A stretch of DNA of 64,000 bases from Nemertoderma westbladi (taxonomy: Eukaryota; Animalia; Xenacoelomorpha). Position numbers and translations under genes: made by a program. Position 1 is the first letter of the stretch, and each line of letters starts with the position of its first letter. Below the pieces are notes generated by a model. It was not told the origin of the DNA. It was given only the letters and a program-made list of their open reading frames with translations, and ran no database searches. Below are positions 13,983 through 63,200 of this stretch, piece after piece. The stretch is from contig JAUCBJ010000498.1 in assembly GCA_032718475.1 (NCBI GenBank), positions 14,436-78,435 on the forward strand. Reading direction: 5' to 3'.

Positions 13983-14430
13983 ACTACTACTAGGATCACA
14001 TGCTGCATTGCAGCTGCATTTTTAAGAATGTTGTGCCGGCTTGTCGACAAAATTGCGCCGCCACAACTCCCTATCACCCATGATATTTGCTAGATCATCC
14101 GCATCTTCAAGGCCAGTGTCCTTTAAGATGCGTCTCAAGAAAGTCATGGGCTGTCCACCATGCTTATTCACTCCATGAGGCTGCCAAAGTACAAGATTAT
14201 GCACTGGCTGGTACTCACGGCAAAAGCAATGTCCTTCAAAGCGGAGGCGGATTTGTTCTAGTGTCAAGCTTGGGGGAACCAATGAGACACCTCCAATGTT
14301 ATATAGTGTCTGGTTGGAGATGTGTGCATTGTACTTGACACAATGAACCCGGCGTAGCATTCTTGTGAATGTGCGATCCAGAGATTTGGTGTCCTCAGCA
14401 GTTAGAGCCCAGCATGAACGCCCATGCTGC
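13983..14430 (-). mobile_element. RTE family A, 5'-truncated copy
   Basis: RT C-terminus (RLRFEGHCF...LVLWQP.HG) and (TAG)n tail; near-identical copies elsewhere in the window. Confidence 0.85.
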
Positions 14431-35230: not shown

Positions 35231-37690
35231 ACTACTACTACTCGGTCGAGCGAACTCGGACAGTGGAAATGAGATCCTTCCAGGATTCCCGATTCTACTA
35301 CTACTACTAGGTCGAGCGAACTCGGACAGTGGAAATGAGATCCTTCCAGGATTCCCGATACTACTACTACTACTAGGTCGAGCAAACTCAGACAGTGGAA
35401 ATGAGATCCTTCCAGGCTTCCTGATTCTACTACTACTACTAGGTCAAGCGAACTCAGACAGTGGAAATGAGATCCTTCCAGGCTTCCCGATTCTACTACT
35501 ACTACTAGGTCGAGCGAACTCAGACAGTGGAAATGAGATCCTTCCAGGCTTCCCGATTCTACTACTACTACTAGGTCGAGCGAACTCAGACAGTGGAAAT
35601 GAGATCCTTCCAGGCTTCCCTTCCCGATTCTACTACTACTACTAGGTCGAACGAACTCGGACAGTGGAAATGAGATCCTTCCAGGCTTCCTGATTCTACT
35701 ACTACTACTACATCGAGCGAACTCGGACAGTGGAAATGAGATCCTTCCAGGCTTCCCGATTCTACTACTACTACTAGGTCGAGCGAACTTGGACAGTGGA
35801 AATGAAATCCTTCCAGGCTTCCCGATTCTCTATAGCTGTTACTTCGCCAGCAGTGCCTACTGAATCTTAATCTGCGTTCGTTCACAGAGGGTGGTTGATA
35901 CAGGTGGTATTGTACCATAAAGCTCGGCGTTTTCATGTGTTGTCTCCAGCTGATGTTTAGGGCTGCCTTTAGTAGTCTTGTGTAGCAACCATCAATTCGT
36001 TGTTCTAGTGATTTAGTCAGTGTCCAGATCTCACCCACATATAAAAATACACTTTCCACTGTGGCTCGAAAGAACTTAGTCTTCAGATGCCTGGAGTGAT
36101 CTGATTTCCAGATGGTATCCATTTTTTATAGAGCTACCCAAGCCTTTGCTTTCCTAACTTCTATGTCATTTTTGCCTCTCTCTATCCATGATCCAAGGTA
36201 CTGGAAGTCGTCGACCTTCTGAGTTTGGTTTCTCAAGTTCTGAGTTTCTCCCAGTCATAGTCGATTTGCTTGCTTGTCCTGGGTTTGCTGGCTCTCAAAC
36301 TGAGTCTGATCTCAACAGTCACAATTCTGTGGTCTGGACTAATTAGGTTGAATGAGCTGTATGCCTCGCAGTTGATCATGCTGTTTCTCCACTTTTTGTT
36401 TATAAGGATGTAATCCAGTTGTGCTTTGGTTCCATTAGGGTATTTAAAAGTCCATAGCTTCCCCTTACTCTTTTCGAATGTGTTGTTTGTCGGTATCAAT
36501 TCACATTCCTCCATTAAGTCTAAAAGTAAGTACCCATTTCTATTAGAACTGGTGTTATAGGTGTAACCCTTGATGTCTTCTGTGCCAATTTGCGCATTCA
36601 GATCACCAGCAATGACTTTAGCATTGTGTTTCAGAATGTCCTTTATAAGTCCAGTCAGATCTTAATAAAACTTGACTGCTTGTTCTGGCTCTGAGGCATT
36701 GGTTGGACTGCAGCAACATATAACTGTTGTCTTGGGATTACCATCAAATGTTGCGATCATAACCCTGGAATTTATAGATTCGATGTTGTTTAGGGTCTTA
36801 ATTGCAAATGGGCTTAGCAGAATTCCTACTCCACCAATTGATGCATTGGCCGAGTTTCTTACTGCTGAGCTTGTTACTAACGTCCATCCATTTCCAATGT
36901 CATTGTACTTCATGGCAGTGTCTGCATGACATATCTGATGTTCTTGGATGCAGATGATGTCGATGTTATATCCTATTGCCAGAGCGACCATGTAACCCTG
37001 TTTGCTATGTGCTTTCAGGGTGCTTGCGTTCATTGTAGCAATCTTTAGTGTGTTTTTACATTTCAACAGGTTGGTTCATCTTTCTTCTGTTCCAGTAGCC
37101 AATTTATCAACCCTAGCCTGGTGTACTACTGAGGGACACGGTCCTTGTTGACCCGGGCAATGACCGAGCCGGTATTTCTCCTGGAGGGTTCTCATACTCA
37201 TATCGTTCAGTTGAGAGAGTAAACCGCTTTTGGTCGCAACTCCTACAAGCCTCTTCGCAGTAGGTCGCCGTTGGTCGATTACCTTCCACCGACCTTGTCA
37301 GCATGTCTAGCTATTGGTTGATTACCTTCCGCCTATCCATGGCCTACAGCCCTGCTGCCGACTGTAGGGGTCCTTTTGTTACACCCTGAACCAAGTGTGC
37401 CTCCTGGGTTAGGTTACCAACAATGGTAGAGGAGCATCCAGTATAGACAGAGTGGGGCGTGTATCATCTCTATTGCAGATGCATATCAAGCCTTTGCCTT
37501 CAATGGTGCCCTAGGTGCTATAGCCCTCAATGACTTATTTAGTTGATGGAGCTAAAACCATCCCACTCTTGATCAACTAAATGATAAATAGGCTACTGGT
37601 GCTTATCAGGCCTGCCCTACTGGGCTGACAGCTACATGTAGGTCCACATTACTGCCATATTGGTAGCAGGATCTGGGGACCTGATCTGAC
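35231..37690 (-). mobile_element. RTE family B deletion derivative with 5' UTR, AP-endonuclease region and 9 tandem 3' ends
   Basis: IATMNASTL...ICIQEH...GGVGILLS...AQLDYIL...SPDHRIV; same RT-deleting junction as 30566; ~66-bp terminal unit repeated over 35231-35830. 5' end approximate. Confidence 0.85.
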
Positions 37691-38384: not shown

Positions 38385-38950
38385 GTAATGGCAATCTCTG
38401 ATCTCCACGGTACTTTAACCTGCAGATCTGTCTGCTGTCAGACAACAGCTTTTACTGCATACTGTTACTGTATAAACAGCAAACATCGTTCTGATTATTT
38501 ATATTTATGACGAGTAAGGGTCTTCTTGATGAGCCACGGCTAAAGTCCCTTACTTGTAATAAATATTATAATTTGAGTATGCTTACGCCACGAAAGGCAT
38601 CGATCCATTAGATGAACTTGCAGACTTGTTCTGATTTATATGTTGCGGAGTAACCTAACAGCCATCATCGCGGGACTATAGTCGACACCAGCAACAACTC
38701 CCATCTGCCCCTCTTTATCAACCGTCATCCATGGGACTTGAACAGTACTTGATTACAGCATTGAAATGTTTTTGATGTTTTGTTTTGAAAGATTCCAGCA
38801 GCATGGTGGATTGATTTAAATTAATTTATTAAGAGATACTGTTGTTTACTGGTACCGGTACCGGTACCTATTTCATACCACTGCTGCACTGCATAATCAA
38901 ACCAAACTCCGTCTGTCTGTCTGTCTGTAACGGTCTCGCGATAATAATTA

Positions 38951-40407
38951 TGTCGTTTAGCCCAACATCTACCGCTTCCGGTGGTTCCACCACTAGAAGT
39001 GACCATCGGCCTGCTCCTCCAGCTACCGGAACAAAGAAGAAGAAGGGGAAGACGTCGCCCCAAATAGCAACCCAACGCCGAGACTCCGTCCCGGCGGTTC
39101 CGCCAGCGGACCTCAGTCGAAATTCCTTTGCTGCTATTTCCCAACCACCACCCCCAGACATTGGCAACTGCACTGTTTGCAACAAACGGGTTATAAACAA
39201 CGGCCTGTCATGTTATGGATGTGGGAAATGGGAACATGCCAACCATTCAAAGATCTCCCCGGCTGTTTACAGCTTCCTGGGTACGTGCCCCTCTCTCTCC
39301 TTCTTCTGTACGAACTGCCACCAACTCTCCTGTGCTGAACTTATCACCCGAGAATCAGGCAAACGTGATACTGACCCAAACACTCCCAATGTCTCACTTA
39401 ACCATCAGATTGAATCGCTGTCTGCCAAACTTAATGATATGCACACTTTCCTTTTGGGTCAACCAGAAAGTAGAGCTAGTGAATCGCCGAACGAAGTATC
39501 AGGTGAGGATGGCCACGGGAATTCCGACTCCCCTTGGATAACCCAAGGCCCTAGGAAATTGCAGAAACATTCCAAATCGGTATCGTTGGACAAGGGAGCA
39601 AGTTTTGAGGACAAACTTCAACATTGCGTTAAGAAAGCAATTAAATCAAACAACGACGAACTGGAATCTAAATGCACGCTTTTCGTGGAGAAGTTGGAAG
39701 AGACCACCTCCCCCAAAGACGACCGTCTGGCGGTTGATCGTCTCCTAGCCCACCTTGAGTGTTCATCAGCAACCGTTACCAGTGTTCGACGGCTTAGAAG
39801 AGCACCTCAATCCAAAAGTCCAGGTCTCATCGAAGTCGTATTCTCATCGATGGCAGACTGCGATAAGGTTATGGGGAATAGACAGAGCCTCGCCTCATCG
39901 GAGGAATTCCGTCGCACGTTTATCCGCCCCAGTTTATCTGAGAATGTTCGCAAAGAACGGGACATCCTTCGCGCGCACTCCTTTCTAACGTATTCCGCCG
40001 ACAACTCGTCGTCGCTATTCGCTGTCTATAATAATCGAACCGAATCGTACTGCCTTCGAAAGCGACTCAACGGAAAGATCGCTTGGCGGTCCGATATCCA
40101 GCTGTCCAGTGAGGAGCGGAAAATAGCCTCTGATCATGTCTCGTCGATGAAACGATCTCGTCGTGGCCAGATGAGACAACCACCACAAGCGGCCGGATCG
40201 TCCACCAGCGACCCCTCTTCTAGACCAACTTCCAGTGAGATCTTTACCTCTACAGGCGCCATGGCTACCGATTGTGATGGGACCCCAGTTGCCATGGTTA
40301 CTGCTACTGGCCGTGTTGCTCCAGGCACCACCGCTTCCGACCCAGTTCCGGTTGTTTGGAGTTCCGCTACAGAAAGCTCAGACACATCTGGCTCGGAAAA
40401 CCTTTAG
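38951..40407 (+). CDS. LINE ORF1 protein with PHD-like finger and RRM-like region
   Basis: Open from 38842, first ATG at 38951. CTVC...CYGCGKWEH...FFCTNC, a coiled-coil, then VRRL...LIEVVF...TFIRPSLS. Confidence 0.8.
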
Positions 40408-43291
40408 GGGGAGAAGCTGCCACTACTGGGAACGTTACCACCGAGTCTGCGAGCCCGATGACTCCTGGAAATGGGGACACTTTACATGGATCTATTCCAT
40501 CCACATTTCTTAACTGTCACCTTATGAACAGTCAGAGTTTAGGTAATAAACTTCCTGAGCTTAATTTGTTTCTAGAAACATGCGATTATCATGTTGTTGG
40601 TGTCACTGAGACTTGGTTACGTGATACTATAACTGACGGTATGCTTGAGAAACTAAACGGAAAACGGTATAATGTTTTTAGAAAAGACCGAATTAATACA
40701 ATCGGAGGGGGTGTGGCTTTATTTGTGCTTAAATCCCTGAAATGTACACAGATATTTTTAAACTGTAAGTTTTCTGATTGTTGCTATCGATATATTAGGG
40801 GACGCACCTACCCGTTTAATTTGTATTTATCGATCTCAGTCTGGAAACTCAATCGAGGATATTACCCTATTATGTGAATGTATTTCGTCACTTTCTGATG
40901 TTAATTACCCAACTGTCTGTATCGGTGATTTCAATCTCCCAGATTTTAACTGGGAAGAAATGTCTTTTCCTATCAACGATATTTATAGTTGCTTTTTCAA
41001 CTGTATTAATGAAGCTGGATTTACCCAGTTAGTAGACAAGCCCACTAGAGGCAATAATATCCTTGATTTGGTGTTCACTACAGAAGTTCTATGTGTCAGT
41101 AGTGTTCTAGTAAATCCCCCCTTTTGTAGTAGCGACCACAGCACAGTCACTTTTAATTTATGTGGCCCTTACCAATTTTTCGAAAGTGACACATTGCAGT
41201 ATTTTGATTTCAAAGATGGCGATTATACTTCTTTTTCTAATTATTTAGATTCTCAGAATTGGCACGATATTTTTAGTTCTTGTACTACTATAGACGATCA
41301 TTGGTGTGCTTTTGATTGCGTATTAAAACATGGTATTAATCAATTTGTGCCTAAAAAGGAAATATCTAGTGATTTCAAAAAGAAATACCCGCTTCATATT
41401 AAACAGTTACAACGTAAAAAGAAATTGCTCTGGCGAAGGCGCCATACCATTCAGGGTAAAAACGAGTACAAAAAAAAATGTACTAAGGAAATCACTAGAA
41501 CAATATTCAGGTATTCATGTTTGAAAGAGAATAAAATATTAGAATCTGGTAAACCAAATGCTATTTTTAGTTATATAAACTCCAAAAGAAATTATAAATC
41601 CGGTATAGCTCCTCTAAAGTTTAATGGCGAAGTCATTGTTGATGATACCACCTAAGCTAAGATATTTTCCAAAGTACTTTCCGAAAATTACTGCGAGGAC
41701 AACAAGTCTACACCGTATTTTGATAATGTGGCACCGGCAAATATTTCACTGCACGATGTTAATTTTAATCCCAATGTTGTTTTTAATGTGTTGCGCAATT
41801 TACCTAGTAAAACTAGTAATACCCCCGATAGTCTACCTAGCAATTTGTATAAGAACCTGGCACGCCAACTAGCGGCACCGTTGTCAGCTATTTTTGAATT
41901 GTCATTCATTTCGCACGCTTTACCCTCTATTTGGTGTACAGCAATTGTAATACCTATGTATAAAAAGGGAGACTCATCTAACCCGTATAATTTACAGACC
42001 TATTTCACTTACATGTGTTGCGTGCAAAGTAATGGAAACGATTATAAATAAGGAGTTACTATCGTATCTATTAAATAACCGCCTAATCTCTAAGCAGCAG
42101 CACGGATTCTTAAAACGTAAATCAACTGCGACTCATTTAATTGAGTGCAATAATGATTGGTTTCGGATTCTGGACAAACGAAAAGATGTTGATGTTGTTT
42201 ACATTGACTTCGAGAAGGCCTTCGACAAGGTCGTCCACGCCAAACTATTGCTAAAACTTGCTGCTTACGGAATTTCCGGTAATTTGTTAGCTTGGTTTCA
42301 TTCTTTTTTATCAAATCGTAAATTTCGTGTGCTTGTTGGTAGAAATTATTCAGATTTTGTTGACGTCATATCGGGTACCCCTCAAGGTAGTGTGGTAGGC
42401 CCTGTTTTATTTATTATATTTATTAATGACCTACCTAATAATTTGCATGCTGTTAGTACTAAACTATTTGCTGATGATCTAAAAATTTACGCTGACCATA
42501 GTAAACATGTTGACATTCAGTGCGCTTTGGATACATTGTCGATTTGGTGTAATACTTGGCAATTGAGTGTTGCTACTTCTAAATGTCATGTTTTGCATAT
42601 TGGGAATCGTAAACTGGATCAAAGTGATTATGTTCTCAATGGTAATTGTCTCAAAGTTAAAACTAGTTGTAAAGATCTAGGTATTACCATGTGCAACGAT
42701 TTAAAATTTAGTAAATACTGTAAGGAGCAGGTTCTTAAGGCGTACAAGGTCATAAATATTATATTTCGGTGTTTTTATTCTTCCAATATGAAATCATTGT
42801 TAACTGCTTATAGATCCTACGTGCGACCATTATTAGAATTTAGTACAGTTGTCTGGTCACCCCATCAGCTTTTCAATATTAAACTAGTTGAACGTGCGCA
42901 ACGTTATTTTACCCGCAGGCTTTTTAAGAGGTGCAATATCTCATACCTAGATGATAGCTACATAAGTAGGCTGGCATTTCTTAATTTGCAACCTCTCCAA
43001 GCTAGGCGTATTATTTTTGATTTGCGTTTGGTGTATAACATGTGTCATGGTAAAGTAGATATTCAGTTTAGCGATTTTTTCGAGTATGTCCAACGCCCGG
43101 GTCTTCGTGGTCATAATTACAAGTTATACATACAGTCTAGCCGCTTAGTAATCTCAAATAACCGTTTTTCCCAACGTACAGTAAATACTTGGAACAGTTT
43201 ACCTCACGATGTTGTTAATGCGCCGAATGTTATCACTTTCAATCGTCTGCTTAAGAATGTAGATTTAAGTCATTTGTATAGTTTTAATTAA
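40356..43291 (+). pseudogene. LINE ORF2 (AP endonuclease plus RT), disrupted
   Basis: VGVTETWL, GGGVALFV, GDFNLP, PTRGNNILDLVFT, SDH, QHGFLK, YIDFEKAFDKV, PQGSVVGP, LFADDLK. Split across 4 ORFs by frameshifts and a stop. Confidence 0.9.
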
Positions 43292-44025: not shown

Positions 44026-46710
44026 TGTGGGGCGAGACACGTATGGCGAGCCATCAGCGAACTGATATAATTATACTATGGCCGTTTTTGAAAAGTCTGT
44101 GTGTGACGTGTGTGTGTGTGTGTGTGTGTGTCGGTAGCCATAAATGTCGGAAGCCATAATCTAAATTAATATCTTCCGCTAAATTGTATGGTTGAGTCAT
44201 TTTGAACGGTCTCTCCATGGAAATTAATTGTTTAGCACCATACGATTAAAGTTATTTTGCACTGCAATTAGATATCTGGAATCCTTGTACCCCATTCCAT
44301 TATAGTTTTTTATTTTTTCAAGTGATTTGCGTTAATAAATGTATTTTTAATTGATTTAAACATAATTAACATTGTAAATTCATACGCTGATTCCATTCTC
44401 CCCCATAGAGCCTAAGGCATGGGCAGCCGTGCCCAATAATATTTCTTGAAGTTTTACAGTTGGCAAGCTAAAGTCATTGGCCAAGCCAGTGCCTAGGCTA
44501 GTACACAAGGACATAGTAGTCCAGTAGAAGGAATAGTGCTCCTTCAATACATCTCAACAGACATCAATTCATTTGCCTGTGCCTACCAACGCCTGCTCCA
44601 TAACATAACATATATTCTTGATTTCCATCACCTCTCGCCACAATTATTATTAGTAATTAAAAGTTTCAATTCGATTTGTCTTTCCGGTATCTGGTTATTC
44701 AGTTATTGCATTATTAATAAATAAATGTTTTAAAATATATCTTACGAAATATGGTAAACTTGTCGCTAACATTCTCGCTATGGGGGTTTTAAGGAGTGCT
44801 GATTACATTTCTGATGTCAGTTTTCACGTTTACATAAATCTAGTCTGTCTGTCTGTCGGTCATTCTGTCAGTCAGTCTGTCAAAACTTAAAAGATAATTC
44901 AAATTAACTAACATTCTCGCTATGGGGGTTTTAAGGGGTGCTGATTTCATTTCTGATGTCAGTTTTCAGGTTTACATAAATCTAGTCTGTCTGTTTGTCG
45001 GTCTTTCTGTCAGTCAGTCAGTCTGTCAAAACTTAAAAAAAAATACAAACTAACTAACATTCTCGTTATGGGGGTTTTAATGGGTGCTGATTTTATTTTA
45101 GATGTCAGTTTTCACGTTTAAAAAAATCTAGTCTGTCTGTTTGTCGGTCTTTCTGTCAGTCAGTCAGTCTGTCAAAACTTAAAAAAGAATACAAACTAAC
45201 TAACATTCTCGTTATGGGGGTTTTAATGGGTGCCGATTTTATTTTAGATGTCAGTTTTCACGTTTAAAAAAATCTAGTCTGTCTGTTTGTCGGTCTTTCT
45301 GTCAGTCAATCAGTCTGTCAAAACTTAAAAAAGAATACAAACTAACTAACATTCTCGTTATGGGGGTTTTAAGGGGTGCTGATTTTATTTCAGATGTCAG
45401 TTTTCACGTTTAAAAAAATCTAGTCTGTCTGGCTGTCGGTCTTTCTGTCAGTCAGTCTGTGAAAACTTAAGAAAGTATACTAACTAACCAACATTCTCGC
45501 TATGGGGGTTTTGAGGGTTGCTGATTTCATTTCTGATGTCAGTTTACACGTTTACATAAATCTAGTCTGTCTGTCTGTCGGTCTCTCTGTCAGTCTGAAC
45601 TACTGTACTGTGGTTGGCATTACGCCATATACCTAACACTAATAATACAGTCTACAATACAGCCTATCTACAGTACAGAATGGATTTTTTGCCATGAAGA
45701 GCAATAAATGTCATTAATACTATCCACCAGTATACCTACTCCAAGAGCCTTCCAATAAAACGTATTCCAGCATGACGTCCACTGCACGTCTTCGTGCTGT
45801 CCATGGTGACGTGCAATGGACGTCATTAGGCTCTAAGGGGTTAAGCAACACGGTCCCTACTTCGCCCTGTCGACACCCCAGCCATTTTCCACCAATCCTT
45901 TTTTAGAGTTTATTAATTTTTTTGGTATTGGTGAAAGTTCTACAACATTAGTAGATATGTTTTTTATGATAGCTAGTGTTTTCTTGCTAGCTAGTACTTT
46001 TTGAAATTATAAAAAATGTGAAAGTCCATGATATTTCAGGATAAACTGTTGAAGAATATATTAATGACCAAAATAATTTCCAAAAATTACTAGCTAGTAA
46101 AAAATACTAGCTATATACCATAAAAAATCTACTAAGGTTCTAGAACATTCACTAATATAAAAAAGCACTCAAAATCACAAAAAAATAAAGGTTAAAAAAC
46201 TCATTCGGGACTCTTTTGCTTAAGGAGTCAAAATTGTAGAACAAATTCCCGAAGTTTGCGACGTTTGCGAAATTTGTGAAGAATTCGTCAGTTTCTGTGC
46301 CCTAATGGTTTCGTGACGAAACAATCAAATCTTACACACTTAACACACACGAACTAATTTAATGTATGCCTGAATAATTAAATAGAAATTAAATTAATGA
46401 ACGCTATTACAACATGAAATCTACGGAATCAATACACAACACACGCACACTACTGAATTTAAAAATTTATATAGATTGCAACTTATATTTGGCTACCTTT
46501 TAATGGGTGATTAATTTAATTATTCACCCTTATATATTTGTAGCCTTTTTAATTTGTGCCTCTAATTGAATCAAACATTAAACTAAAATATATGTCACAA
46601 TATTGGTCTGTCTGTAGCTGGTTAATGAATCTCTCATAAATTTGTTAATTAGTCGCTGTTCATTCATTGAACATTTGAACACGTGCTGCTCGAAGACCCC
46701 ACAACGTGTT
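44026..46710 (+). mobile_element. Second HINE/Helentron-like element with (GT)n and a 142-146 bp satellite
   Basis: 5' TGTGGGGCGAGACACGT and 3' CACGTGCTGCTCGAAGACCCCACAACGTGT parallel the termini of 18727-20335; also contains nested MITE-like IRs (~45900-46190). Confidence 0.65.
44766..45597. repeat. 142-146 bp satellite x 6 with GTCT/GTCA microrepeats
   Basis: Units start at 44766, 44908, 45054, 45200, 45346, 45488. Confidence 0.9.
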
Positions 46711-47668
46711 TAAGCACAAGGTATAGATATCAACTTGATGACATAGACTTTATTAATTTTATTGGGTAGTGTAGTAAATTAAATCTAAAATTGTTCTGAT
46801 TTTAATATAATACAATAGTCATTATATTAATAATTTTATAAATGGACTTACAATGCGAGTTGGAGATTAATTATTATGATGAATCAATGTAGGGCGATAC
46901 TGAACGTTGTTTTTCCCAATTCCACATGAAATTTATTCACATAAATTAGTCTTTAATAATCATAAAACATTGTACAATGAAATATATTTACGTAGCTGGA
47001 GTACAGTTACAACAAATGCTTGTAAAGTAAAAGGTAATCCCATGTAAATAAATGGAAATCCTTTCTTTCTTACAAAAAGATAAGATTAAAAATCCAACCA
47101 CTCATACAATTCCACCAACTTGGCCTTGAGCCAATGAATGACCGTTCTGGAAACATGTGGAATATTATCTGGTCGTTCTCAGGTTTTAGAATGAAATGAA
47201 GGTTGCAAAAAGAAAGAAAGGCCGTGTGGATGTAATAACTTAGGCATTTCCTAATCACACGGCAACAAATACAAATTATCTCGGCACAAAATAACTATGG
47301 TGAAAGCGCTTATCCTATTCCTGTTATGTATGAATTCAATTATTTTTTGATAAAAACCCTAGGAAGTTAATGATATTTCAAAAGGATATGCTAGGTTTGT
47401 AATCGCGTGTCGTCGCTGTTATAATGGCTATTAGATATAATAATACATGACTTGGGTTTTGAATTAAAGATTCACACATTCATAGAGTGCACGTTTAGGG
47501 CTAAGGGGGCACTGATGTGAAGATGTAAACAACACCGGTGAGATTTGTAAGGACATATATAACTTATTAGTGTTATAGGCAACTACAGAGTTACTTTCAA
47601 TTAATGGAAAGGAGCAGGTTACATAGCACGGTATTTGAAATAAAACAACAAACGAAAGTCAATAGGAC

Positions 47669-48195
47669 TTCTAGGATCGGCATGCTACATTGCAGCTGCA
47701 ATTTTAAGAATGCTATGACGGCTTGTCGACAAAATTGTGCCGCCACAACTCCCTATCACCCATGACATTTGCTAGATCATCCGCATCTTTAAGGCCAGTG
47801 TCCTTTAAGATGCGTCTCAAGAAAGTCATGGGCTGTCCACCATGCTTATTCACTCCATGAGGCTGCCAAAGTACAAGATTATGCACTGGCTGGTCCTCAC
47901 GGCGAAAGCAATGTCCTGCAAAGCGGAGGCGATTTTGTTCTAGTGTCAAGCTTGGGGGAACCAATGAGACACCTCCAATGTTATATAGTGTCTGGTTGGA
48001 GATGTGTGCATTGTACTTGACACAATGTACCCGGCGTAGCATTCTTGTGAATGTGCCATCCAGAGATTTGGTGTCCTCAGCAGTTAGAGCCCAGCATGGA
48101 CTCCCGTAGAGGAGTACTGGAACTACTGCTGCTCTAAATAATCGGACCTTAAGTTTCCGATTAATTCTATGTGACTTCCAAATCCTGGAAAGCCT
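47669..48195 (-). mobile_element. RTE family A, 5'-truncated copy
   Basis: Same sequence as 28501-29032. Confidence 0.85.
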
Positions 48196-48198
48196 ATC

Positions 48199-48395
48199 GG
48201 TACGTAGTACCGATAGTTAGAGAGTTAGTAGGTACGTAGTACCTAGTTAGAGTTAGAGTTAGAGGGTACGTAATGCCTAGTTAGAGTTAGAGTTAGAGGG
48301 TAGGTAGTACCGATAGAGTTAGAGTTAGTAGGTACGTAGTACCTAGTCAGAGTTAGAGTTAGAGGGTACGTAGTACCATTAGTTAGAGAGAGAGA
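48199..48395. repeat. 32-34 bp tandem repeat GGTACGTAGTACC-(AGTTAG)n, 6 units
   Basis: Units at 48199, 48231, 48265, 48299, 48331, 48365. Confidence 0.9.
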
Positions 48396-48887
48396 GTGAG
48401 AGGTAAAAGGGGTAAAAATAGGATATAGATATTAGTTAGCAGTAAGTAGAGTTAGTAGCGAGAGGGGGGCATATGAGTGCAGCTGGATAAATCGTGTGGC
48501 CACACGACGCATACTGCTGTGCTGCATAGGCCCACAGAGTAGGCCAGAATATGGATCAGAGAATAGAATAAATCCATAGGCAGTAGTAAGTAGTAGGACA
48601 GTAGAATCAAAGCAAAATAAATAAATAAATAGAATAGGGCTAAAATCGGAAAATAGTGGTAACACAAGGAAAGTCGTTCTAGAACATAATAAAAGTAACG
48701 GACGGAAATTGTAAATTAGGCTGATTTACTAGCTCCGAAATTAATTAGATTAAATTAAGCTTGAAAGGCGCAGTTAAGTAGAAAAGTAGGCCATTATCGA
48801 ACTGTACGAAACATCTTAATACATCACTCATCTGTATTGCGCCTTGGTAAGGCACCACCCTGCAGGTGAGCGAGTGTAGTGTTCGGA

Positions 48888-51422
48888 ATGGCGAGTAAGC
48901 TGATCAGGAAGAGAAAGGCGGAGTCAGGAGGAAAAGAAATATTGGTGGATTTCACCGAAAGACACCCGGAGGAGAAGACGAGAGGATACTACGAGAGGTT
49001 GGAAAGGGGTCACGCGGCACGAGCGCTGCAGGATCACTTCCGGGAGGCGCACGAACAGCGGTTGGTCGGGACCTACGGGACGCCGTCGCTGGACAACGCG
49101 ATCTTCCAACACTTCCACTACGTGGTGAAAGGAGACGAGGCGAAGTTCGGGATTCCGAAGTATCCGAGGGAATCGCCGAGGAAGGACTGGAAAAGATTCA
49201 TAGAGTCCGTCAACAGAGGAGGATATATGATCCTAGATGACGAGGGAACCGTGGAAGACGAAGCGGGTTCGAGACGAGGAACGGCAGGGTCGGCCAGGAC
49301 CATACTCTTGCATTTGGCAGCGCCAAATGGGGACATCTTCTTATTTGACCTAGGGACGTATGGGAAGAAGGACGGGCCGAAATTAGACCGACTACCGAAA
49401 GCGGTACAGGTCTTAGTAAGAGAGAAGTCGACGACGAAAGTGGGATCGGCGATTCGCGAGGACGCGGAGAGGATCATCGGTCCGGACGCCACCAACCTCC
49501 TGGATATGCAGAAAGTCTTTATGGCTATGACGGCACCGGATGGATTGGGGGTGGTCGAGAACTCAGGCCAATGCGGGGCGGTGGCGATGGGCCAATTATT
49601 GGGGCTCGTATGCCACAAACCAATGGATTGGGGGAAGTTTAGGGAAGAATACGGAGCAGAACTAGCGAACTCGCTGGAGTGGGGAGCGAGACCGGGAAAG
49701 CAGGAGGTATATCAGTTTCGCAGAGGAGCGATAAAGGTATATCAGAAGCAATATATCCTGCAGGAGGACTGGATGATGATAAGTTTACTTAACTTATTCA
49801 TGACCGTAGTTATCGAAAGAGAACCAGGGGCATTTCTGTTATCGGGATCACCCCTAAGCTACAGGAGAGCCTTTAAGACGGCCTTTGACGGTCTGGTAGA
49901 CCACCCGGGGCTGAAGGGCGAGTCGGTGTACTACAACAGCCGACATCTGGTAGATGGGGAGACGGATACACCGTATCAGAGATGGGAGCAGCTAGAGATG
50001 GATAGACGGGAAGCAAAGCGACTGGAAGAAGTCGCTAGACGGGAGAGGATAGAAGCAGAGGAGAGGGAAGAGGAGGCCAGGGCACAGAGTTACGGCTTCG
50101 AGGAACAGGCGGGCCTAGACGAACTTCATTGGACTTCGTCAGGGAGTTCGGGGGAGTCTCTAGGGCGAGAATTGGGATGGACGGTGGGATCGCCGAAACA
50201 GTCGACGTCGGGGTTGCACACGATACCCATACCAGCGGGTGCCGAGGGCGACCAACCGCCAAGGAAGCCAAGGGAGCTGGAGGGATGGAGAGCTACGGGC
50301 GAGAGCCAAGGCGGGAAGGGACATAGTGGGTCCATCGGGATACCGGGATTGGAGACACTACCGGAAGAGGAGGACGACGACGACGAGTTCGGAGAGATGC
50401 CGCCCATCGAGAGGATAGGCCACTCGGACACGGACTGGGTTGGCGGAAGGGTGGTGACGGCCAGTGGGGCGAGGGCCTTCTGGAACAGATCCGGCAAGCG
50501 GACCTGGGTGTACGAGGGGCCGGCGATGGATTTCGCGGGGAGCACCATCAGGTTGGGCGAGCAACCGGGGACGGCACCACGGATAGTATTCGGGGAGACG
50601 ATGCCCGAGAGGGGCGGAGAGATCGACGTAAACAGGGAGAGCAACGTGGAGAAGTTTGCCTACCAGCGACTCCATAGACCGCGGAGATCGCTTGGGACGA
50701 AGGACGAGGTGGGACGCGAGACATTGGTACTCGGCTGCGACTACTGTGGGAGACAGACCCATCAGGAAAGCAGCTGCCTATACCGGTTCCAACGGGGAAC
50801 CTTTTGTCTCTATTGTAGAGAACCAAGTCACAGGATGGGGGCGTGTCCACGGTTGCATAACCGATGTCCAAAGTGCCACTTTCGGGGACACTACGGGCGC
50901 GAGTGCGACTGGATGAGCGACGAGGAGAAGTTCACGAGGTTCGAGGAGTGGGCCGACGTCGGGGCCATGACGCGCCAGCGCATGAAGGCCCAAGAGTTCA
51001 AGTGGGGTTTCTTCCTCATAAACCAGGAGACCCACATGGAAATCATAAAGCGAAGGTTACCGTTTACCTATCAAGAGGTAGCTACGGCGGCATCGTTCGC
51101 CGGAGTTATGAACACGCAACGGTACCTGGACAGGTGGACACCAGAGAACCGGAGGGAGTTTAGGGATTTCTTGGCGGAACACGTACCAAAGGCAATGAAG
51201 ATGATCCTATGGGACGCCACACGAGGGAAACAACCAGGCCATTCTGAGGGGCCACCGGCGAAGCGGTATCGGGCTTTAATAACACCAGCGCCCAAGGAGC
51301 CGACGACCGGGATCAGCAAGGAAGTGGCGGCAAAGGTCCGGAAGCAGAAAGCGGATGATGCCAGAGGAGCGGTGATAACCAAGAAACGGGCCAGGGAGGA
51401 GGACGTGAGGAGGTACAGATAA
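48888..51422 (+). CDS. 844-aa protein: DEDDy 3'-5' exonuclease-like domain plus three CCHC zinc knuckles
   Basis: Intact intronless ORF, ATG in GGAATGG context. ILDDEG (ExoI), LLHLA...IFLFDL...LP..V..LV...TKVGSAIRED (ExoII), LLDMQ, QKQYILQED (ExoIII). Three CX2CX4HX4C at 50736-50906. Confidence 0.8.
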   Translation: MASKLIRKRKAESGGKEILVDFTERHPEEKTRGYYERLERGHAARALQDHFREAHEQRLVGTYGTPSLDNAIFQHFHYVVKGDEAKFGIPKYPRESPRKDWKRFIESVNRGGYMILDDEGTVEDEAGSRRGTAGSARTILLHLAAPNGDIFLFDLGTYGKKDGPKLDRLPKAVQVLVREKSTTKVGSAIREDAERIIGPDATNLLDMQKVFMAMTAPDGLGVVENSGQCGAVAMGQLLGLVCHKPMDWGKFREEYGAELANSLEWGARPGKQEVYQFRRGAIKVYQKQYILQEDWMMISLLNLFMTVVIEREPGAFLLSGSPLSYRRAFKTAFDGLVDHPGLKGESVYYNSRHLVDGETDTPYQRWEQLEMDRREAKRLEEVARRERIEAEEREEEARAQSYGFEEQAGLDELHWTSSGSSGESLGRELGWTVGSPKQSTSGLHTIPIPAGAEGDQPPRKPRELEGWRATGESQGGKGHSGSIGIPGLETLPEEEDDDDEFGEMPPIERIGHSDTDWVGGRVVTASGARAFWNRSGKRTWVYEGPAMDFAGSTIRLGEQPGTAPRIVFGETMPERGGEIDVNRESNVEKFAYQRLHRPRRSLGTKDEVGRETLVLGCDYCGRQTHQESSCLYRFQRGTFCLYCREPSHRMGACPRLHNRCPKCHFRGHYGRECDWMSDEEKFTRFEEWADVGAMTRQRMKAQEFKWGFFLINQETHMEIIKRRLPFTYQEVATAASFAGVMNTQRYLDRWTPENRREFRDFLAEHVPKAMKMILWDATRGKQPGHSEGPPAKRYRALITPAPKEPTTGISKEVAAKVRKQKADDARGAVITKKRAREEDVRRYR

Positions 51423-52129
51423 GTTCCCGGAGGCGAGGGAATGAGACTGAGACTGGGAAGTGGTGCGCCTGGAAGGCGCCGCATGTAACGTACGAACTAT
51501 TAAATATAAATTTAATTAATGCAAATAACCATATAAGTGCAATTCGTATGTACGTACGTAGTGATTAGCAATAAAATACATACGTTTGGAGTAAGTACTA
51601 TAGTCATACAACCTTTCTCAATTAGCTACTGGGACTGGGGGACAATTGACTATGGCACTATGGACGAGACAACTGACAATTTCACACTTCTTGAGTGCGG
51701 CGGCACGAGAGGGGGGGGAGGTTCGTCAGGAGAGATAAAACAGTCAAAGTGGACTTGAGAATCGGAATAAGAGTGTGAAGTGCGGAGAGAGTGCGAGCGC
51801 AATTCTAGTGTGGGGGGGGAGAATGAGAGGCTGAGTAAGGGACGAGGAGGTCCGGGGGTATGAGAGAGTTAGGGTGAGAGTGAAGGTGAGATAGGGCGAA
51901 AATGTTGGGGAAACAAAAGTTGCGTGGGAGGTGAGCGCGATCGGCCCGACATGAGACGCCAGGCACACAGGGTAGCGTTATCATACCCATAGGGGGCGGC
52001 CTGGAAAGCCGACCCCGAGAGAAAAGAATTCCACCCCACACCCGATACTAGATCGGGATCCAGCGGGATTGTAGCGCACTTTTTTGGTTGATGCTATCTT
52101 CTTACCGGGAAGATAGCATGGGGGGGGAG

Positions 52130-52666
52130 TGTTAGCTTATTCAATCCCGCCAACACCCCATAAAGTTATTAGCCGATAAGCAATATTGGGAGCCACGAGA
52201 TTGGGCAATTAACCAACTCGTGCCATCCCAATAAGAGTGGGAAGGAAGCACACAATAGAGGGTCAGGGGCCAAACCCCTAACCCAGAGAGAACAGGTGGA
52301 GTGAACGGGAATACTCCACGGGGCGCCAACAAGGGTATTAACCAATCAGAGGGGGGAATGGCATCGATTGAGTAGCAGTAAGGCCACCGTGCAATATAAA
52401 CAATAACCTATTAATCAGTGATTCAGTTATCTCAGTGCAGCAGTGCTAGCGTAGGGTACAGCCAATTAGTTTAGTTAGGGGATCACGGGACTTTAGTTAC
52501 CGTATCCCGCCTTGTACACATTCACAATATATCTATATCTTATAACCTCTTATTATACACCGAACTTCAGAACTCAGTTATCTTTATTTCACTCTTATAC
52601 ACGGCGGGGACGCGTGGACTAAATACCACACCGGATAAATCGGGATCCCTCCTGGATCCCGTCACA
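52130..52666 (+). repeat. Putative 3' LTR (537 bp)
   Basis: Starts TGTTA right after the G8AG PPT and ends TCACA. CCAAT at 52342, TATAAA at 52395 and Inr-like TCAGTT 30 bp downstream. No partner LTR in window. Confidence 0.7.
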
Positions 52667-53211
52667 CTAAATGTTTATAAAGTTATTAATGATAACGATA
52701 AAATCAGTGCCTAAATAAAACATTGCGTAAACTGCACATAGGCGCCAATTTACTTAAATTTTCATATGAGTTTGGATAAACCTGTTTCGCTATAAATATC
52801 ATATATTCCCCATTTTCGAAACCGTTCGGTGACTGTTCAAATTGTAAATCCGTTATTGATCAAATAAATTGATGTTGATTGTCTGGGGTTTGATGCGACT
52901 ACCTACAGGTTAAAGAAAGGCGAACTGCGATAAATTAGTAGGTATTAGCAGCACGTACTAGAGGAGCATGTACTCTCCCTTGATTGGGAGAGTGCAGTTC
53001 AAACCTTCGCGAAATTAGTAATTATTTGTAGCAACCTAAGCGTGTTTCATTAGATAATACCAAGGGATGGCTTCGGCTTAGATGTACTCTACTGTACCCT
53101 TACCTAGCGGAATCAATAATTTTACGACTGGTATAATAATAAGTTGTGAGAAAGAGGTAAATTATTGATTACAACAACGAAATGATCTTCGTTTCAACCT
53201 ACAAATGAAGA

Positions 53212-53487
53212 AGAGCACCCAGAGTGTAGGTCATTGATTCATTCAGTGAGTAGAGAGAGCACCCAGGGTGTAGGTCATTGATTCATTCAGTGAGTAGAGA
53301 GAGCACCCAGAGTGTAGGTAATTGATTCATTCAGTGAGTAGAGAGAGCACCCAGAGTGTAGGTAATTGATTCATTCAGTGAGTAGAGAGAGCACCCAGAG
53401 TGTAGGTCATTGATTCATTCAGTGAGTAGAGAGAGCACCCAGAGTGTAGGTAATTGATTCATTCAGTGAGTAGAGAGAGCACCCAGT
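53212..53487. repeat. 44-bp tandem repeat x ~6
   Basis: AGAGCACCCAGAGTGTAGGTCATTGATTCATTCAGTGAGTAGAG. Confidence 0.9.
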
Positions 53488-53569
53488 AACCCATAGGATT
53501 GCATTGATTTTACTTTTTTCCCGGAGAAAAAAAAGTGAAATATAAATATTTATTACATGGGAAAAAAAG

Positions 53570-55043: not shown

Positions 55044-56640
55044 ACTACTACTACTAGGTCGAGCGAACTCGGACAGTGGAAATGAGATCCTTCCAGGCTT
55101 CCCGATTCTCCATAGTTGTCGCAATTTCGTTTCTCCCAAGTTCAGTATCCCTTTCAAGTTGATCTATATATGTTATGGCAGGTCGTCCACGACTACGCTT
55201 TCCATGAGTTGGTTGCCAGAGAAGTAGATCTGGTATGACCTCGTCTTTACTTCGCCAGCAGTGCCCACTGAATCTTAATCTGCGTTCACGGAGGGTGGTT
55301 GATACAGGTGGTATTGTACCATAAAGCTCGGCGTTTGTCATGTGTTGTCTCCAGCTGATGTTTAGGGCTGCCCTTAGTAGTCTTGTGTAGCAACCATCAA
55401 TTCGTTGTTCAAGTGATTTAGTCAGTGTCCAGGTCTCACCCCCGTATAAAAATACACTTTCCACTGTGGCTCGAAAGAACTTGGTCTTCAGGTGCCTGGA
55501 GAGATCTGATTTCCAGATGGTATCCATTTTTGATAGAGCTACCCAAGCCTTTGCTTTCCTAACTTCTATGTCCTTTTTGCTACTCTCTATCCATGATCCA
55601 AGGTACTGGAAGTCATAGACCTGCCTTAGTTGATTATTATCAATGGTTGTCAAGTTTCCATCAACATTAAAGGTCATGAATTCGGTCTTGGTAGCATTTA
55701 TATGCAATCCAACCTCCTTAGCAGCCCTCTCCACTTTATTTAGTAGAAGCTGTGCATCTGCTAGCGTATTAGAGAGCAGGGCGATGTCATCCGCAAAGTC
55801 GGTGTCTGTGACTGTAGTTGCCGGATATCTACTACTTCTGCGTTCTTGAAGTGTGAATCCCAGATCTTCACCCTTTGTGGCCGTCCTCATTGCGTAATCC
55901 AGCACAATTACAAATAGTAATGGTGCTAATGTGTCACCTTGCAGTACGCCAGCCAGGATTGAGAAAAACTCAGTTTCACCATCTGGTGAGAGTACCTGCG
56001 CTTCTGTGTCACAATATAGCAATCCAATGCCAGCAACAATTACTTCTGGTATTCCATAAGCTCTTAGGATTTCAAGCATTTTACCTCTATGGATGGAGTC
56101 GAATGCCTTCTTGAAGTCCACAAAAGTCATGACTGCGGGGAGATTCTTTGACTTAATTCCTTCAATCAGTCTCCGTAGTGCAAGTATCTGAGCTATTGTT
56201 GATCTACTTGGTCGAAATCCGTTTTGGCTCTTACGCAGTAGTTTCTCTATGTGAGGCCTAATCCTATATAGAATCATTTTATTGTATATTTTGGCAGCTA
56301 CCACAAGCAGACAGATCCCACGATAGTTTGTTGGTATGCCGAGGTCTCCTTTCTTGGGGAGAGGCTTTAGTTGACCTTTAGTCCAAATTGGTGGTGGCTT
56401 TTCCCCTTTTAACATCCGGTTGCAAACATTCAATAATGGTCTATTTAGCACTCCGGTTTTCCATACCTCCGCTGGGATTTCATCTAATCCACTCGCTTTA
56501 TTATTGGACATGCTTTTAATGCTTCTTTGGAGTTCGGCAGGTGTGAAGTCCCCTGTTTCTATAGGTAGTGTCTTGTCATATATTTTCCTTGTAGGGCTGA
56601 CCTCGATGTTTGGTGGCTGCCCAAGCAAGTTGCTGAAGTG
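55044..56640 (-). mobile_element. RTE family B, young 5'-truncated copy
   Basis: (TAG)n tail; TSD ATTTTATTCT(A) at 55034 and 56641. Confidence 0.9.
55054..56628 (-). CDS. RTE-clade reverse transcriptase (5'-truncated ORF, uninterrupted 524 aa)
   Basis: KASGLDEIPAE, NYRGICLL, QNGFRPSRST, FVDFKKAFDSI, GVLQGDTLAPLLF, DFADDIALL, FQYLGS, RRLRFSGHCWR. Confidence 0.9.
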   Translation of the reverse strand: MLGQPPNIEVSPTRKIYDKTLPIETGDFTPAELQRSIKSMSNNKASGLDEIPAEVWKTGVLNRPLLNVCNRMLKGEKPPPIWTKGQLKPLPKKGDLGIPTNYRGICLLVVAAKIYNKMILYRIRPHIEKLLRKSQNGFRPSRSTIAQILALRRLIEGIKSKNLPAVMTFVDFKKAFDSIHRGKMLEILRAYGIPEVIVAGIGLLYCDTEAQVLSPDGETEFFSILAGVLQGDTLAPLLFVIVLDYAMRTATKGEDLGFTLQERRSSRYPATTVTDTDFADDIALLSNTLADAQLLLNKVERAAKEVGLHINATKTEFMTFNVDGNLTTIDNNQLRQVYDFQYLGSWIESSKKDIEVRKAKAWVALSKMDTIWKSDLSRHLKTKFFRATVESVFLYGGETWTLTKSLEQRIDGCYTRLLRAALNISWRQHMTNAELYGTIPPVSTTLRERRLRFSGHCWRSKDEVIPDLLLWQPTHGKRSRGRPAITYIDQLERDTELGRNEIATTMENREAWKDLISTVRVRST

Positions 56641-57136
56641 ATTTTATTCTATTTAATAAATAAACCATATTCTGGAACATTTTTTTTAAATGTATGAATA
56701 GCTACGTAATAGTATGATTAAAGATGTAATGCATTGTTGCCCAGCTACGTATTTGGATAAACAAAATATTCCAGATTATGATATATTTATTAAATAGAAT
56801 ATAATAGCCTCGCGCAGGTGCATAAACATGCAAATTTTGAACGCCCATATCTCTGCTATTTTTCAACGAAATTCAAATTGTGTTACATATTTGGAATCCT
56901 TGCGCGGTCAGCTTTCTATCAGTACCAACAAATCACTATAATGTTTAAGAATAACTGCGGTGTAACTGGTGTAATATCGTTGGAGACACTTTTTTTAAAC
57001 GCATGTAGCTAAAGATTGAAAGCAAAAATAAAAATTCTAGCTCACCCAGTCAGTGGTCGGGAGGTGAAAAAAAATTAGGGGGGGGGGGGGGGGGTGTCAC
57101 TGAATTACGACACTATATTCTGGGACATGGTGTTGT

Positions 57137-60204: not shown

Positions 60205-63200
60205 TGTAAGCGGATTCAATTCCTGCACTACGGAAACTACCCAGCGGAAAATGGGCTTAGTGACATTACCAATATAATGTCACCTAATAACCAACTTAGG
60301 CAATCCACATTGCCGGCCACAAGCAAAGTTGAGAGGTCATAAACCATCTCAAGGGGGCAAAGGGGCTAGCACGTGGGGATAGTGGCAGCAGGGAGTGGCG
60401 AGATGGAGATTAATTAGTTTAGCCAATGATGGGACGGGAGAACAGGTGATTGGCCAGCCCACTCAGAACAGTAGAAGTAACTAATATGTGTTAGCAATAT
60501 AACCGTTGTACTTGTTAATTATGATTCAGTTGGTATCTGTAGAATTGTGAGACCGGAACGGTTTTTAACGTCGTCACTACTGTGCTATTATATTCTGACT
60601 GTGCTATTATTATGTTCTGAGATTACAACAACTGGCACTAAAAACTCAGTTATTCAAACGGCCTTCGGCCTTAATATTCAGACTACAGCCTTTCTTTAGA
60701 GCTACTTAAGACTCTTAGACTCTTAGACTCTTAAGTCAGGTGAGGACCTTCGAATACGTAAGGGAAAGGCATGGGCAGCCTTGAATAGGCTTTCCAGGAT
60801 TTGGAAGTCAACGAGAATTAATCGGAAATATAAGGACTGATTATTTAGAGCAGCAGTAGTTCCAGTACTCCTCTATGGGAGTCCATGCTGGGCTCTAACT
60901 GCTGAGGACACCAAATCTCTGGATGGCACATTCACAAGAATGCTACGCCGGGTTCATTGTGTCAAGTACAATGTACACATCTCCAACCAGACACTATATA
61001 ACATTGGAGGTGTCTCATTGGTTCCCCCAAGCTTGACACTAGAACAAAATCGCCTCCGCTTTGCAGGACATTGCTTTCGCTGTGAGGACCAGCCAGTGCA
61101 TAATCTTGTACTTTGACAGCCTCATGGAGTGAATAAGCATGGTGGACAGCCCATGACTTTCTTGAGACGCATCTTAAAGGACACTGGCCTTGAAGATGCG
61201 GATGATCTAGCAAATGTCATGGGTGATACGGAGTTGTGGCGGTGCAATTTTGTCGATAAGCCGGCACAGCATTCTTAAAAATGCAGCTGCAATGCAGCAT
61301 GCCGATCCTAGTAGTAGAGCTACATCCTCTGTGAAAGCAAGAAGGGTGTTAGAAAAAGATCTGGTGTGTCAACTAGACATAGTCGCACTAGACCAAAAGG
61401 GAAGAAATATTTAGTTAGCTAGTGAGGGAGGTTAAGGAGGTGCCACCATGATCAAAGTAGAGTTATGATAGAGTTATGCAATAACCCAACGGATAGGCTG
61501 CTCAGTTAAAGGTCCAGCTGGTGCAAGACGAAAAAGCTAGTAGCATATCTGAGGGCCTACGGAGAATTCCTTAGGGGAGCTGGTAAGGATACCAAGACGA
61601 GACCCACCATCGATCTGGATGGAGCGGCCAAAGCCGTGATACGATACAAGCAAAGGAAGGGATACGGAGACAAGGTAAACTGCATCAGCAAACAACAACG
61701 CCTTCGTCAAGACAGCGAAACGCGCTGTCACCACAATTAGATGAGGATGGGATCCTGGTTATGAACTCCAGGGTGGTAAACAACATCAGCCCCGTAATCC
61801 CACCAAAGCCAGATAGGTGTATAGATTGCTTGCCAGATAGGGGGGGGGGGGGGGGGGGGGGGCAGGGTGACATTCCCCTATTACTGTATCCGCAATACAC
61901 ACAACCAAAATTAAAAACCCCGACCCCCTCAGATCCAAATAAATCGTGTGACACAGAGATATGGAGGGGACCGCTACCCCCGATGATATATCCCACTCAG
62001 GGAAAGTCGACGAACCTGAGGGGCGATGCACAGCCAACGTTGAAGGAGCCTGCATCCTTACCGTCAAGCGCGCTGGAAGTTCAAGCGATGGGAATGGCAA
62101 CACTCATTGACGCGCTGAAAACTAGAATTGAGCTGCCACCCATGAAGCCTTTCAAGTTTGATCATAGCAAACCGGAAGAATATCTACAGTTCCGGAGGAT
62201 GTACTTTATAGTAACCAGATTTTGATGAGAATCTCATACAGGCGGAGTGCCTTAAATATCTACAAGTCTATACAGGGGGGCCAGCCTACGGCATCATGAG
62301 GCAATACAAAGGTATTGAAGGGGGATTCACAACTGCTTGGAGAGCCCTGGACAGGGAATTTGGCCATCCTGCGAAAATTATCCGACAAACCTTAAGGGGA
62401 ATAACATCGAGCGGACTCACAGATAACCCCGTTAGCATCAAGACTTTCGCCAAGTAGAAAAAGCGCTAATAGTCTTAAAGACTCTAGATGCACCTTACGA
62501 ACTCAATGCATCGAACAACATCACCACGATAGCGCAGGTACTCCGATCTGGTTAAGGAATAAATGGAGAAAGATTGCTTTCTCCACACGAGAGAAGAAGG
62601 GTGCGGAGCCAGGGTTGGAGGAGATTTTGAACTTCCTTAACTACGAGGCGGAGTTAATAACAGATCCAGTCTATAGTGAGGACAGTCTAGGTAAGGTAGC
62701 GAAAATGGAATGCAGCCGACCTAAAACAGAACATAGTCCGTCGGATGCATTTCCGAAAGTGAGGCAGTCGCTACCACATGCGGCCACACAGGGGACTACA
62801 AGTCCACAGAGCCCTGGGAATAGAGCCACATCGTGGAAGTGGCAGGGATAGAGACAAGACAACAACACCAGTAGATATAAACCTAATACTCCCAGTAGGC
62901 CGAGTCCAAACAAACAAAACACTAAACCACTCGACGTGAATCTGGACGCAATATGCGATGCGCTATATGAGGAACACTACAATCCCAATTACAAATGTCA
63001 CTTGCATAGAAATGGGACCCATAAGACCATAGACTGTAAGCATTGGCAGGCGTTACTTAAACAAAATCGGATAGCCTCCACTGCACTGGTAAGAATGGAC
63101 TATGTCATCAATGCGTGGTAGGAGGACACAGAAAAGACGAATGTCAGGAACCACCAATTAAATATGCCGAGACTGATGGGACTGGAGGTCAGATGATGGC

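Follow-up and report, generated by a model that had tools for sequence, protein, structure and literature searches.

A 64,000-nucleotide stretch of the Nemertoderma westbladi genome (assembly GCA_032718475.1, contig JAUCBJ010000498.1, positions 14,436 to 78,435; the whole stretch is called the window below) holds an uninterrupted open reading frame (ORF) of 844 amino acids (aa) in a long terminal repeat (LTR) element. What is this gene, which kind of element carries it, and what might it do for that element? An initial annotation made from the letters alone had read it as an intact DEDDy exonuclease with three CCHC zinc knuckles. We conclude from sequence comparison that it is very probably an accessory DEDDy-zinc ORF of a BEL/Pao retrotransposon. 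It is likely to be the second gene of a BEL/Pao family, in whose other members the copies lie between pol and the polypurine tract (PPT).

An intact ORF at the end of a high-copy repeat

The ORF (48888..51422, + strand) had zero internal stops and was composed of an exonuclease-type domain, a linker, a zinc cluster and a tail. The motifs quoted in the initial annotation were all present, at aa 116 (LDDEG), 140 (LLHLA), 150 (IFLFDL), 184 (KVGSAIRED), 286 (QKQYILQED), 685 (FEEWADVG) and 706 (WGFF), as were its acidic disordered linker and three exact knuckles. The predicted DEDDy-type 3'-5' exonuclease domain spanned aa ~66-320 (49083..49847, +). It was followed at 49848..50735 (+) by a long helix (aa 362-401) and an acidic linker of low model confidence (aa 404-611). 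The linker had a predicted local distance difference test (pLDDT) score below 50 and was net acidic, with 35 D/E against 24 K/R. The zinc cluster (aa 617-673; 50736..50906, +) contained exact CX2CX4HX4C knuckles starting at aa 617, 640 and 660; an L-H that is conserved across the family lay between knuckles two and three. Not even one such knuckle arose in 5000 shuffles of the protein. The conserved tail, FExxADxGxxT..R..WGFF (50907..51077, +), formed a high-confidence single model with the zinc cluster.

A PPT about 700 bp downstream and an LTR had also been claimed, and both were located. After a 3' untranslated stretch (51423..52119, +), the PPT GGGGGGGGAG (52120..52129, +) began 698 nt past the stop. 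TGT followed directly, opening a 537-bp 3' LTR (52130..52666, +) that closed with ACA at 52666. The same junction of GGGGGAG and TGT was found 3' of the ORF in relatives. Summed contig depth, which does not equal copy number, was ~7,000-77,000 across the ORF and 20-35 past 52848 in three DNA runs, and two flank contigs started at 52668. This depth contrast and these contig starts show that the ORF sits in a high-copy repeat whose end is the LTR. The 3' edge of the LTR was supported by the same data. Its 5' edge was inferred from the PPT motif, and the depth rise was already visible in the bin 51893-52083. A second purine tract was seen at 51812 with no TGT after it, and depth was high immediately 5' of the PPT (51812-52120). 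These signals may stem from short, non-autonomous derivatives, or the LTR may be longer.

The 5' part of the element was missing from the window. A purine-rich non-coding stretch with 11 GTTAGA units (48198..48887, +) preceded the ORF; it was repeated in the genome and no pol remnant was detected in it. Profiles of gag, reverse transcriptase (RT) and integrase gave zero remnants in the sequence upstream of the ORF. The copy was cut off at a 5'-truncated long interspersed nuclear element (LINE) fragment (47667..48197, - strand), which we take to be RTE-like and of which the window held several copies, 96% alike. No target duplication was seen there by eye. For this copy, the window held only the 3' LTR and no second LTR, primer binding site (PBS), gag or pol.

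Other forms of the repeat were seen among the contigs. A joint from 50900 to 51445, found in all three DNA runs, skipped 544 bases, so that both the tail and the ORF's end were lost; a derivative of the element with an internal deletion therefore exists. The two flank contigs starting at 52668 came from X2 and X3. The X2 contig had 495 different letters ahead of this point and is possibly an allele without the insertion. A run guessed to be RNA contained a few pieces, which has no bearing on expression.

The N-terminal domain is predicted to be of DEDDy type

A single-protein search of Pfam and PDB sequences gave nothing significant, and word-based homologue searches with the protein or with alignment A1 gave no matches. 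A HMMER scan of 1.84 billion representatives yielded 76 matches, mainly through the zinc-tail region. One of them, P0043, was dropped as a repeat artefact. An N-terminal domain was common to many of the long matches. The Atlas placed aa 60-350 close to 3'-5' exonuclease clusters (score 0.94, with PF01612 in 34% of members). Family profiles matched EXD2 best (E 4.7e-10 and 5.8e-14) and WRN next; Egalitarian and the Trypanosoma brucei RNase D, TbRND, were matched too.

The AlphaFold (AF2) model had a mean pLDDT of 59, with core blocks at 80-94. In Foldseek it matched Egl, Nibbler, RNase D, EXD2 and Rrp6 with E values of 1.5e-6 to 3e-4. VIA-align gave similar scores for NrnC (Z 14.0, root-mean-square deviation (rmsd) 4.3, 190 aligned), Nibbler EXO (Z 13.7, rmsd 3.4, 202 aligned) and WRN (Z 13.6, rmsd 3.3, 177 aligned), and EXD1 was also among the nearest folds. 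The model thus showed the RNase H-like DnaQ fold of the DEDDy class. These results agreed with the motif order and fold first assigned, and the N-terminal domain is predicted by profile and fold to be of DEDDy type.

The candidate active site was complete in the window copy. D117/E119 (ExoI) and D192 (ExoII) occupied family-conserved columns, which the profile paired with DCE and SED of EXD2. ExoIII was represented by Y289 and, four places on, the acidic E293. The last residue of the set was thus E instead of the usual D. Among 43 intact members, nine had E and 34 had D at this place. The profile match at ExoIII of EXD2 was a weak stretch (1.4 bits).

Relatives of the ORF are carried by BEL/Pao elements

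Relatives were collected with a DNA motif for H-x4-C-x2-L-H-x2-C-x2-C-x2-R-G-H as the search key. At least 120 metagenomic loci had this zinc motif, and about 300 were estimated for one metagenome collection from 26 of its 64 parts. Flanking sequence covered 80 loci. Upstream sequence of 5 kb or more was available for 33 loci. In 30 of them a BEL/Pao pol lay 5' of the ORF and on the same strand, with 1.6-4.7 kb between the pol end and the motif. The remaining three were two broken copies without pol and one chance match. Locus L071 was rejected as a family member, being a chance match. Among upstream ORFs of at least 400 aa (44 of 46 scanned), Pao peptidase or DUF5641 was found in 32 of 36 loci, and no other superfamily was seen; the Pfam scans gave no match to dUTPase. 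The env-position accessory ORF proposed at first was in this way recovered in relatives.

The loci were chosen by the zinc motif alone, and 44 of 47 long ORFs had the exonuclease domain upstream of it, as a profile predating locus retrieval already showed for most. Three long ORFs had no exonuclease domain. Among the variants, L047, L054 and L059 had a zinc-tail without the exonuclease, P0002 had a duplicated zinc-tail module, and in L005, L051, L043 and L015 the ORF was extended far at its N-terminus and measured 1,300-1,600 aa.

The full layout in relatives was a PBS, one gag-pol of ~2,000-2,400 aa, the accessory ORF, an untranslated region of a few hundred bases, the PPT and the LTR. A G-rich PPT-like junction was found in 25 of the 43 loci with sufficient 3' sequence, some of them probably by chance. 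The gag-pol was of BEL type, with protease, RT, RNase H plus integrase (PR-RT-RH-IN), a Pao peptidase and a triple Gag knuckle; it was missing from the truncated window copy. Own BEL-type Gag knuckles were present in the gag-pol of all 13 carriers checked. The 537-bp LTR and 10-nt PPT of the window copy, for which only the 3' LTR was available, fell within the ranges for Belpaoviridae (LTR 0.2-1.2 kb, PPT ~10 nt). The PBS TGGCGCC(CAAC) stood at the 5' end of 14 loci (among them L013, L029, L031, L037, L039 and L046), and the window has no 5' end. We presume this PBS to be of the tRNA-Lys type.

The carriers' nearest pol relatives from named organisms (sponge, coral, jellyfish, ribbon worm and others) were at most 42% identical. 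An RT/RNase H tree was built from 62 rows (23 carriers, 11 named and 28 unnamed proteins; P0081-P0135 and odd-numbered unnamed ids were left out). It placed 21 of the 23 carriers in one clade with none of the 11 named proteins (Shimodaira-Hasegawa-like approximate likelihood ratio test, SH-aLRT, 99). L010 and L079 fell outside it on a long branch. Five unnamed BEL clades have been reported from plankton (PMC5029228).

The zinc motif had no matches in viral contigs and 12 in prokaryote genomes. Six of the latter were without a family domain, five of these with stops beside the motif, and were read as chance. The other six (L123, L124, L127, L128, L130 and L132) were short, element-like contigs in two bacterial bins that carried the ORF, two of them with a BEL integrase. 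They are probably mis-binned animal retrotransposon DNA.

A zinc-plus-tail module conserved in the family

The zinc cluster and the tail were predicted to fold as one module, with a pLDDT of 79 and a predicted template modelling score (pTM) of 0.72. Foldseek gave no match to this model at E <= 0.001. The best Z among 48,161 chains was 3.8, which is no proof that the fold is new, and in the Atlas all leads for the module were below 0.9. For this module the model is confident and Pfam has no family, and its motif is sufficiently specific to serve as a clade marker. Exact-spacing knuckles were absent from 34 of 47 long ORFs of the loci, indicating that three exact knuckles are a trait of the window copy and that the family-conserved unit is the Cys/His cluster plus tail. 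The zinc profile had weak matches (E 5e-6 to 2e-3) in nine of 120 BEL gag-pol proteins, so a Gag knuckle may be the origin of the module.

Co-inheritance, selection and loss of the catalytic set

The exonuclease and integrase trees of 28 loci were closely correlated (Mantel rho 0.83; none of 2000 permutations was as high). In quick trees of the same loci, 7 of 9 strong splits were common and no strong conflict was seen. This agreement shows co-inheritance, not function. The carriers' RT/RNase H divergence reached 31-58% identity, and the median end branch was 0.51 for the exonuclease and 0.31 for the integrase.

The ratio of nonsynonymous to synonymous rates (dN/dS) had been proposed as a check and was estimated on pairs of relatives. 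The exonuclease gave 0.09-0.56 in 16 of 19 pairs that were non-independent and had dS near 1; the other three were saturated. The six dead-site pairs gave 0.22-0.52. Pol rows for L005/L051, L019/L043, L038/L063, L044/L077 and L037/L066 were left out, since they were maybe not true pol ends. These sequence comparisons indicated purifying selection on the exonuclease domain of the relatives.

Two features of the accessory ORF were seen beside this signal. Antisense ORFs overlapped it in GC-rich relatives (1058 aa in L038, 955 aa in L007). The proportion of synonymous differences (pS) among L046, L026 and L028 was 0.42-0.57 in the accessory ORF, against 0.72-0.77 when the pol genes of these pairs were compared. 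The lower pS may reflect codon bias or additional constraint.

Catalytic residues were lost repeatedly. Six of 80 aligned domains were partial; of the 74 others, 43 had the full acidic set, 29 had lost ExoI and two were changed elsewhere. Mapping of the catalytic state on the tree required at least nine changes, and a dead clade of 17 rows still had a conserved domain. Catalysis thus appears to be dispensable in ~40% of relatives. The nuclease reading first suggested was supported in part: the site is intact in the window copy, but the catalytic set was lost in many relatives.

Relation to known systems

The closest parallel is ORF3 of the bdelloid rotifer elements Juno/Vesta and Athena/Terminon. 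It is an RNase D-like DEDDy protein placed after pol, in the env position and without a membrane segment (PMC5408684; PMC6431247), which agrees with the earlier statement that DEDDy accessory ORFs occur in bdelloid retroelements. Its catalytic residues are kept with one D-to-E change (PMC5408684). By description, the carriers differ, since those studied here are BEL/Pao with a Pao peptidase, not dUTPase-bearing Juno/Vesta or Athena. In the rotifer report, a Cys-His-Cys motif is described in two ORFs, and its accessible text mentions no C-terminal knuckle cluster with tail (PMC5408684). Acquisition there was recent and patchy (PMC5408684), in contrast to the deep-clade co-inheritance and repeated catalytic loss observed here.

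TbRND (PDB 7c42, 7c45; PMC7797062) also has a DEDD exonuclease followed by CCHC knuckles, and it matched both domains of the family profile. Its authors call this domain pairing very unusual (PMC7797062). The initial annotation had considered the fusion unrecognised and the family possibly undescribed. No Pfam model covers it, but the pairing of DEDD with CCHC was already known from TbRND. TbRND is a kinetoplastid mitochondrial host enzyme. It has four knuckles and a linker of 28 aa, and the FE..ADxG..WGFF tail is absent from it. The TbRND-type class is more than 80% similar with a short Exo-ZF1 linker, whereas the ORF studied here had 16-18% identity in structural alignments, a ~290-aa linker and a mobile-element context. 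The two would probably be independent fusions. EXD2, WRN-exo, Nibbler, EXD1 and Egalitarian share the fold and motifs, and this group spans active and binding-only forms; they are host genes without the zinc-tail module.

Belpaoviridae are similar in the LTR, the ~10-nt PPT, the single gag-pol with PR-RT-RH-IN (seen here in relatives), the extra ORF after pol and the length of ~10-11 kb (PMC8742986; PMC3118150). Their third gene is env-like, whereas the protein here is predicted to be soluble and nucleic-acid-binding. The ICTV description lists gag, pol and env only, with a PBS for tRNA-Arg or tRNA-Gly (PMC8742986). The word 'exonuclease' was absent from the accessible main text of three BEL/Pao surveys, whose sequence files may hold such elements unannotated. 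No report of a BEL/Pao element with an exonuclease ORF was found in literature searches whose coverage excluded most subscription papers. The ORF would be a clade-wide non-env accessory gene of BEL/Pao, whose extra ORFs are described as env-like. Matched active, dead and deleted forms of one domain offer a natural experiment on what DEDDy ORFs bring to retroelements, a question that has stood since the rotifer report.

Proposed role of the accessory protein

Our tentative proposal, plausible though short of probable, is that the protein serves as an accessory factor that binds transcripts of its own element. Binding rather than cutting looks like the core job, because catalysis was lost repeatedly while the domain was retained. 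The long vertical retention would suggest a gene that favours its own carrier. By analogy with TbRND, whose CCHC domain provides RNA binding and boosts 3' trimming (PMC7797062), the zinc module would grip single-stranded RNA and the DEDDy pocket would receive an RNA 3' end. In intact-site lineages, including the window copy, this end might be trimmed, for example of host-added tails. In dead-site lineages it might only be held or shielded, as by the binding-type DEDD proteins Egalitarian and EXD1. The benefit could lie in stability, handling or packaging of element RNA under host surveillance. All five catalytic residues of Egalitarian can be mutated with RNA binding and function kept, and EXD1 functions with a dead domain (10.1101/2025.08.03.668247). 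Egalitarian retains all five of these residues, which shows that a complete site is not necessarily what such a protein depends on.

Several points weigh against this proposal. With gag-pol absent from the window copy, its assignment to BEL/Pao was made through relatives that were only 29-46% identical in the zinc region and ~24% in the exonuclease. The zinc module was universal among the loci by construction, since it was the search key. With a linker of ~290 aa, against 28 aa in TbRND, the two domains may not be coupled. The site is intact in 58% of relatives, which implies that cutting is important to many lineages; its target may be RNA or DNA of the host. The within-genome signal was weak, with nine of 17 listed differences synonymous (40 of 441 rows). 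The synonymous excess had p 0.008 against all sites and p 0.07 against transitions only, and is suggestive only.

The strongest alternative, which we regard as unlikely, is small-RNA counter-defence. The protein would trim, destroy or sequester piRNA or siRNA precursors or tRNA fragments, or mimic Nibbler or EXD1. Nibbler EXO and EXD1 were among the nearest folds, and overexpression of TbRND depletes small guide RNAs (PMC7797062). Arenavirus ExoN dampens innate signalling (PMC7968707). The longer branches of the exonuclease relative to integrase and the enrichment of basic clusters resembling nuclear localization signals (NLS; 58 against a shuffled mean of 19) pointed the same way. However, catalysis was lost repeatedly, and every estimable pair had dN/dS below 1. 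The protective 3' methyl group of mature piRNAs also argues against trimming. A trans-acting suppressor would equally aid elements without the ORF, and the accessible rotifer report gives no clear link between DEDDy ORF3 and copy number (PMC5408684). In its fullest form, an unnamed deep BEL/Pao clade of aquatic animals would have taken up a host DEDDy nuclease akin to EXD/Nibbler and joined it to a zinc module of no recognised fold, as a small-RNA silencing suppressor switching repeatedly between cutting and decoy forms. We doubt this version to the same degree; if true, an animal LTR retrotransposon would here carry a gene for an anti-silencing enzyme.

An improbable alternative is an adaptor for the transport or export of RNA, in the manner of Egalitarian or Rev. 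It would route the element's RNA to the cytoplasm or the germ cell, and catalysis would be incidental. In Foldseek the first seven rows were Egalitarian-BicD-RNA complexes, one with the I-factor signal. Dead-site lineages exist, and NLS-like clusters occurred in 31 of 47 ORFs. However, by Z the Egalitarian match was level with those to NrnC, Nibbler and WRN, and its place in the ranking is no sign of a closer relationship; no motor- or export-binding motif was identified.

Equally hard to favour is a DNA-side role, namely trimming of cDNA ends or proofreading in reverse transcription or integration, which we hold to have a small chance. The top profile match was EXD2 and the next WRN, both of which can act on DNA. 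DEDDy domains of Dada transposases have been proposed as 3'-end processors (PMC3706591). Whole autonomous-looking lineages, however, had no catalytic residues or no domain at all, and the ORF is separate and outside Pol. The majority of BEL/Pao elements described so far replicate in its absence (PMC8742986).

We consider it very improbable, and largely refuted, that the ORF is an ordinary Gag, an Env, a spliced gene of the host or a neutral passenger: the knuckles look like nucleocapsids and the zinc profile weakly matched BEL gag-pol, but the 13 carriers checked have separate Gag knuckles, no membrane segment was found (maximum KD19 1.3; only 5 of 47 relatives reached 1.8), and the ORF is uninterrupted, high-copy and LTR-linked, with purifying selection in relatives. 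The accessory RNA-binding factor remained our preferred reading among those weighed, and the initial view that the ORF is neither Gag nor a host gene was upheld.

Other elements in the window

A second, decayed BEL/Pao element was found at 60260-64000, with gag and protease remnants that matched the carriers' profile with E values down to 6e-10. It had an unrelated LTR-like start, and the LINE fragment seen at 47667-48197 was inserted in it at ~60733-61317. A LINE at 38833-43291, presumably CR1/L2-like, had a 524-aa ORF1 with a Cys/His finger; pieces of AP-endonuclease and RT lay in separate frames. One LINE family was represented by many 5'-truncated copies, up to 96% alike, at 14019, 27520, 28537, 43776, 47667, 57139 and 60785. 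A second LINE family was found at 55054-56643 with a 529-aa RT ORF. Tandem arrays were present at 18867-20112 (315 bp), 31410-31925 (30 bp), 32682-33624 (72 bp), 35154-35895 (66 bp), 44766-45714 (146 bp) and 53168-53519 (44 bp), and some of them yielded spurious long ORFs.

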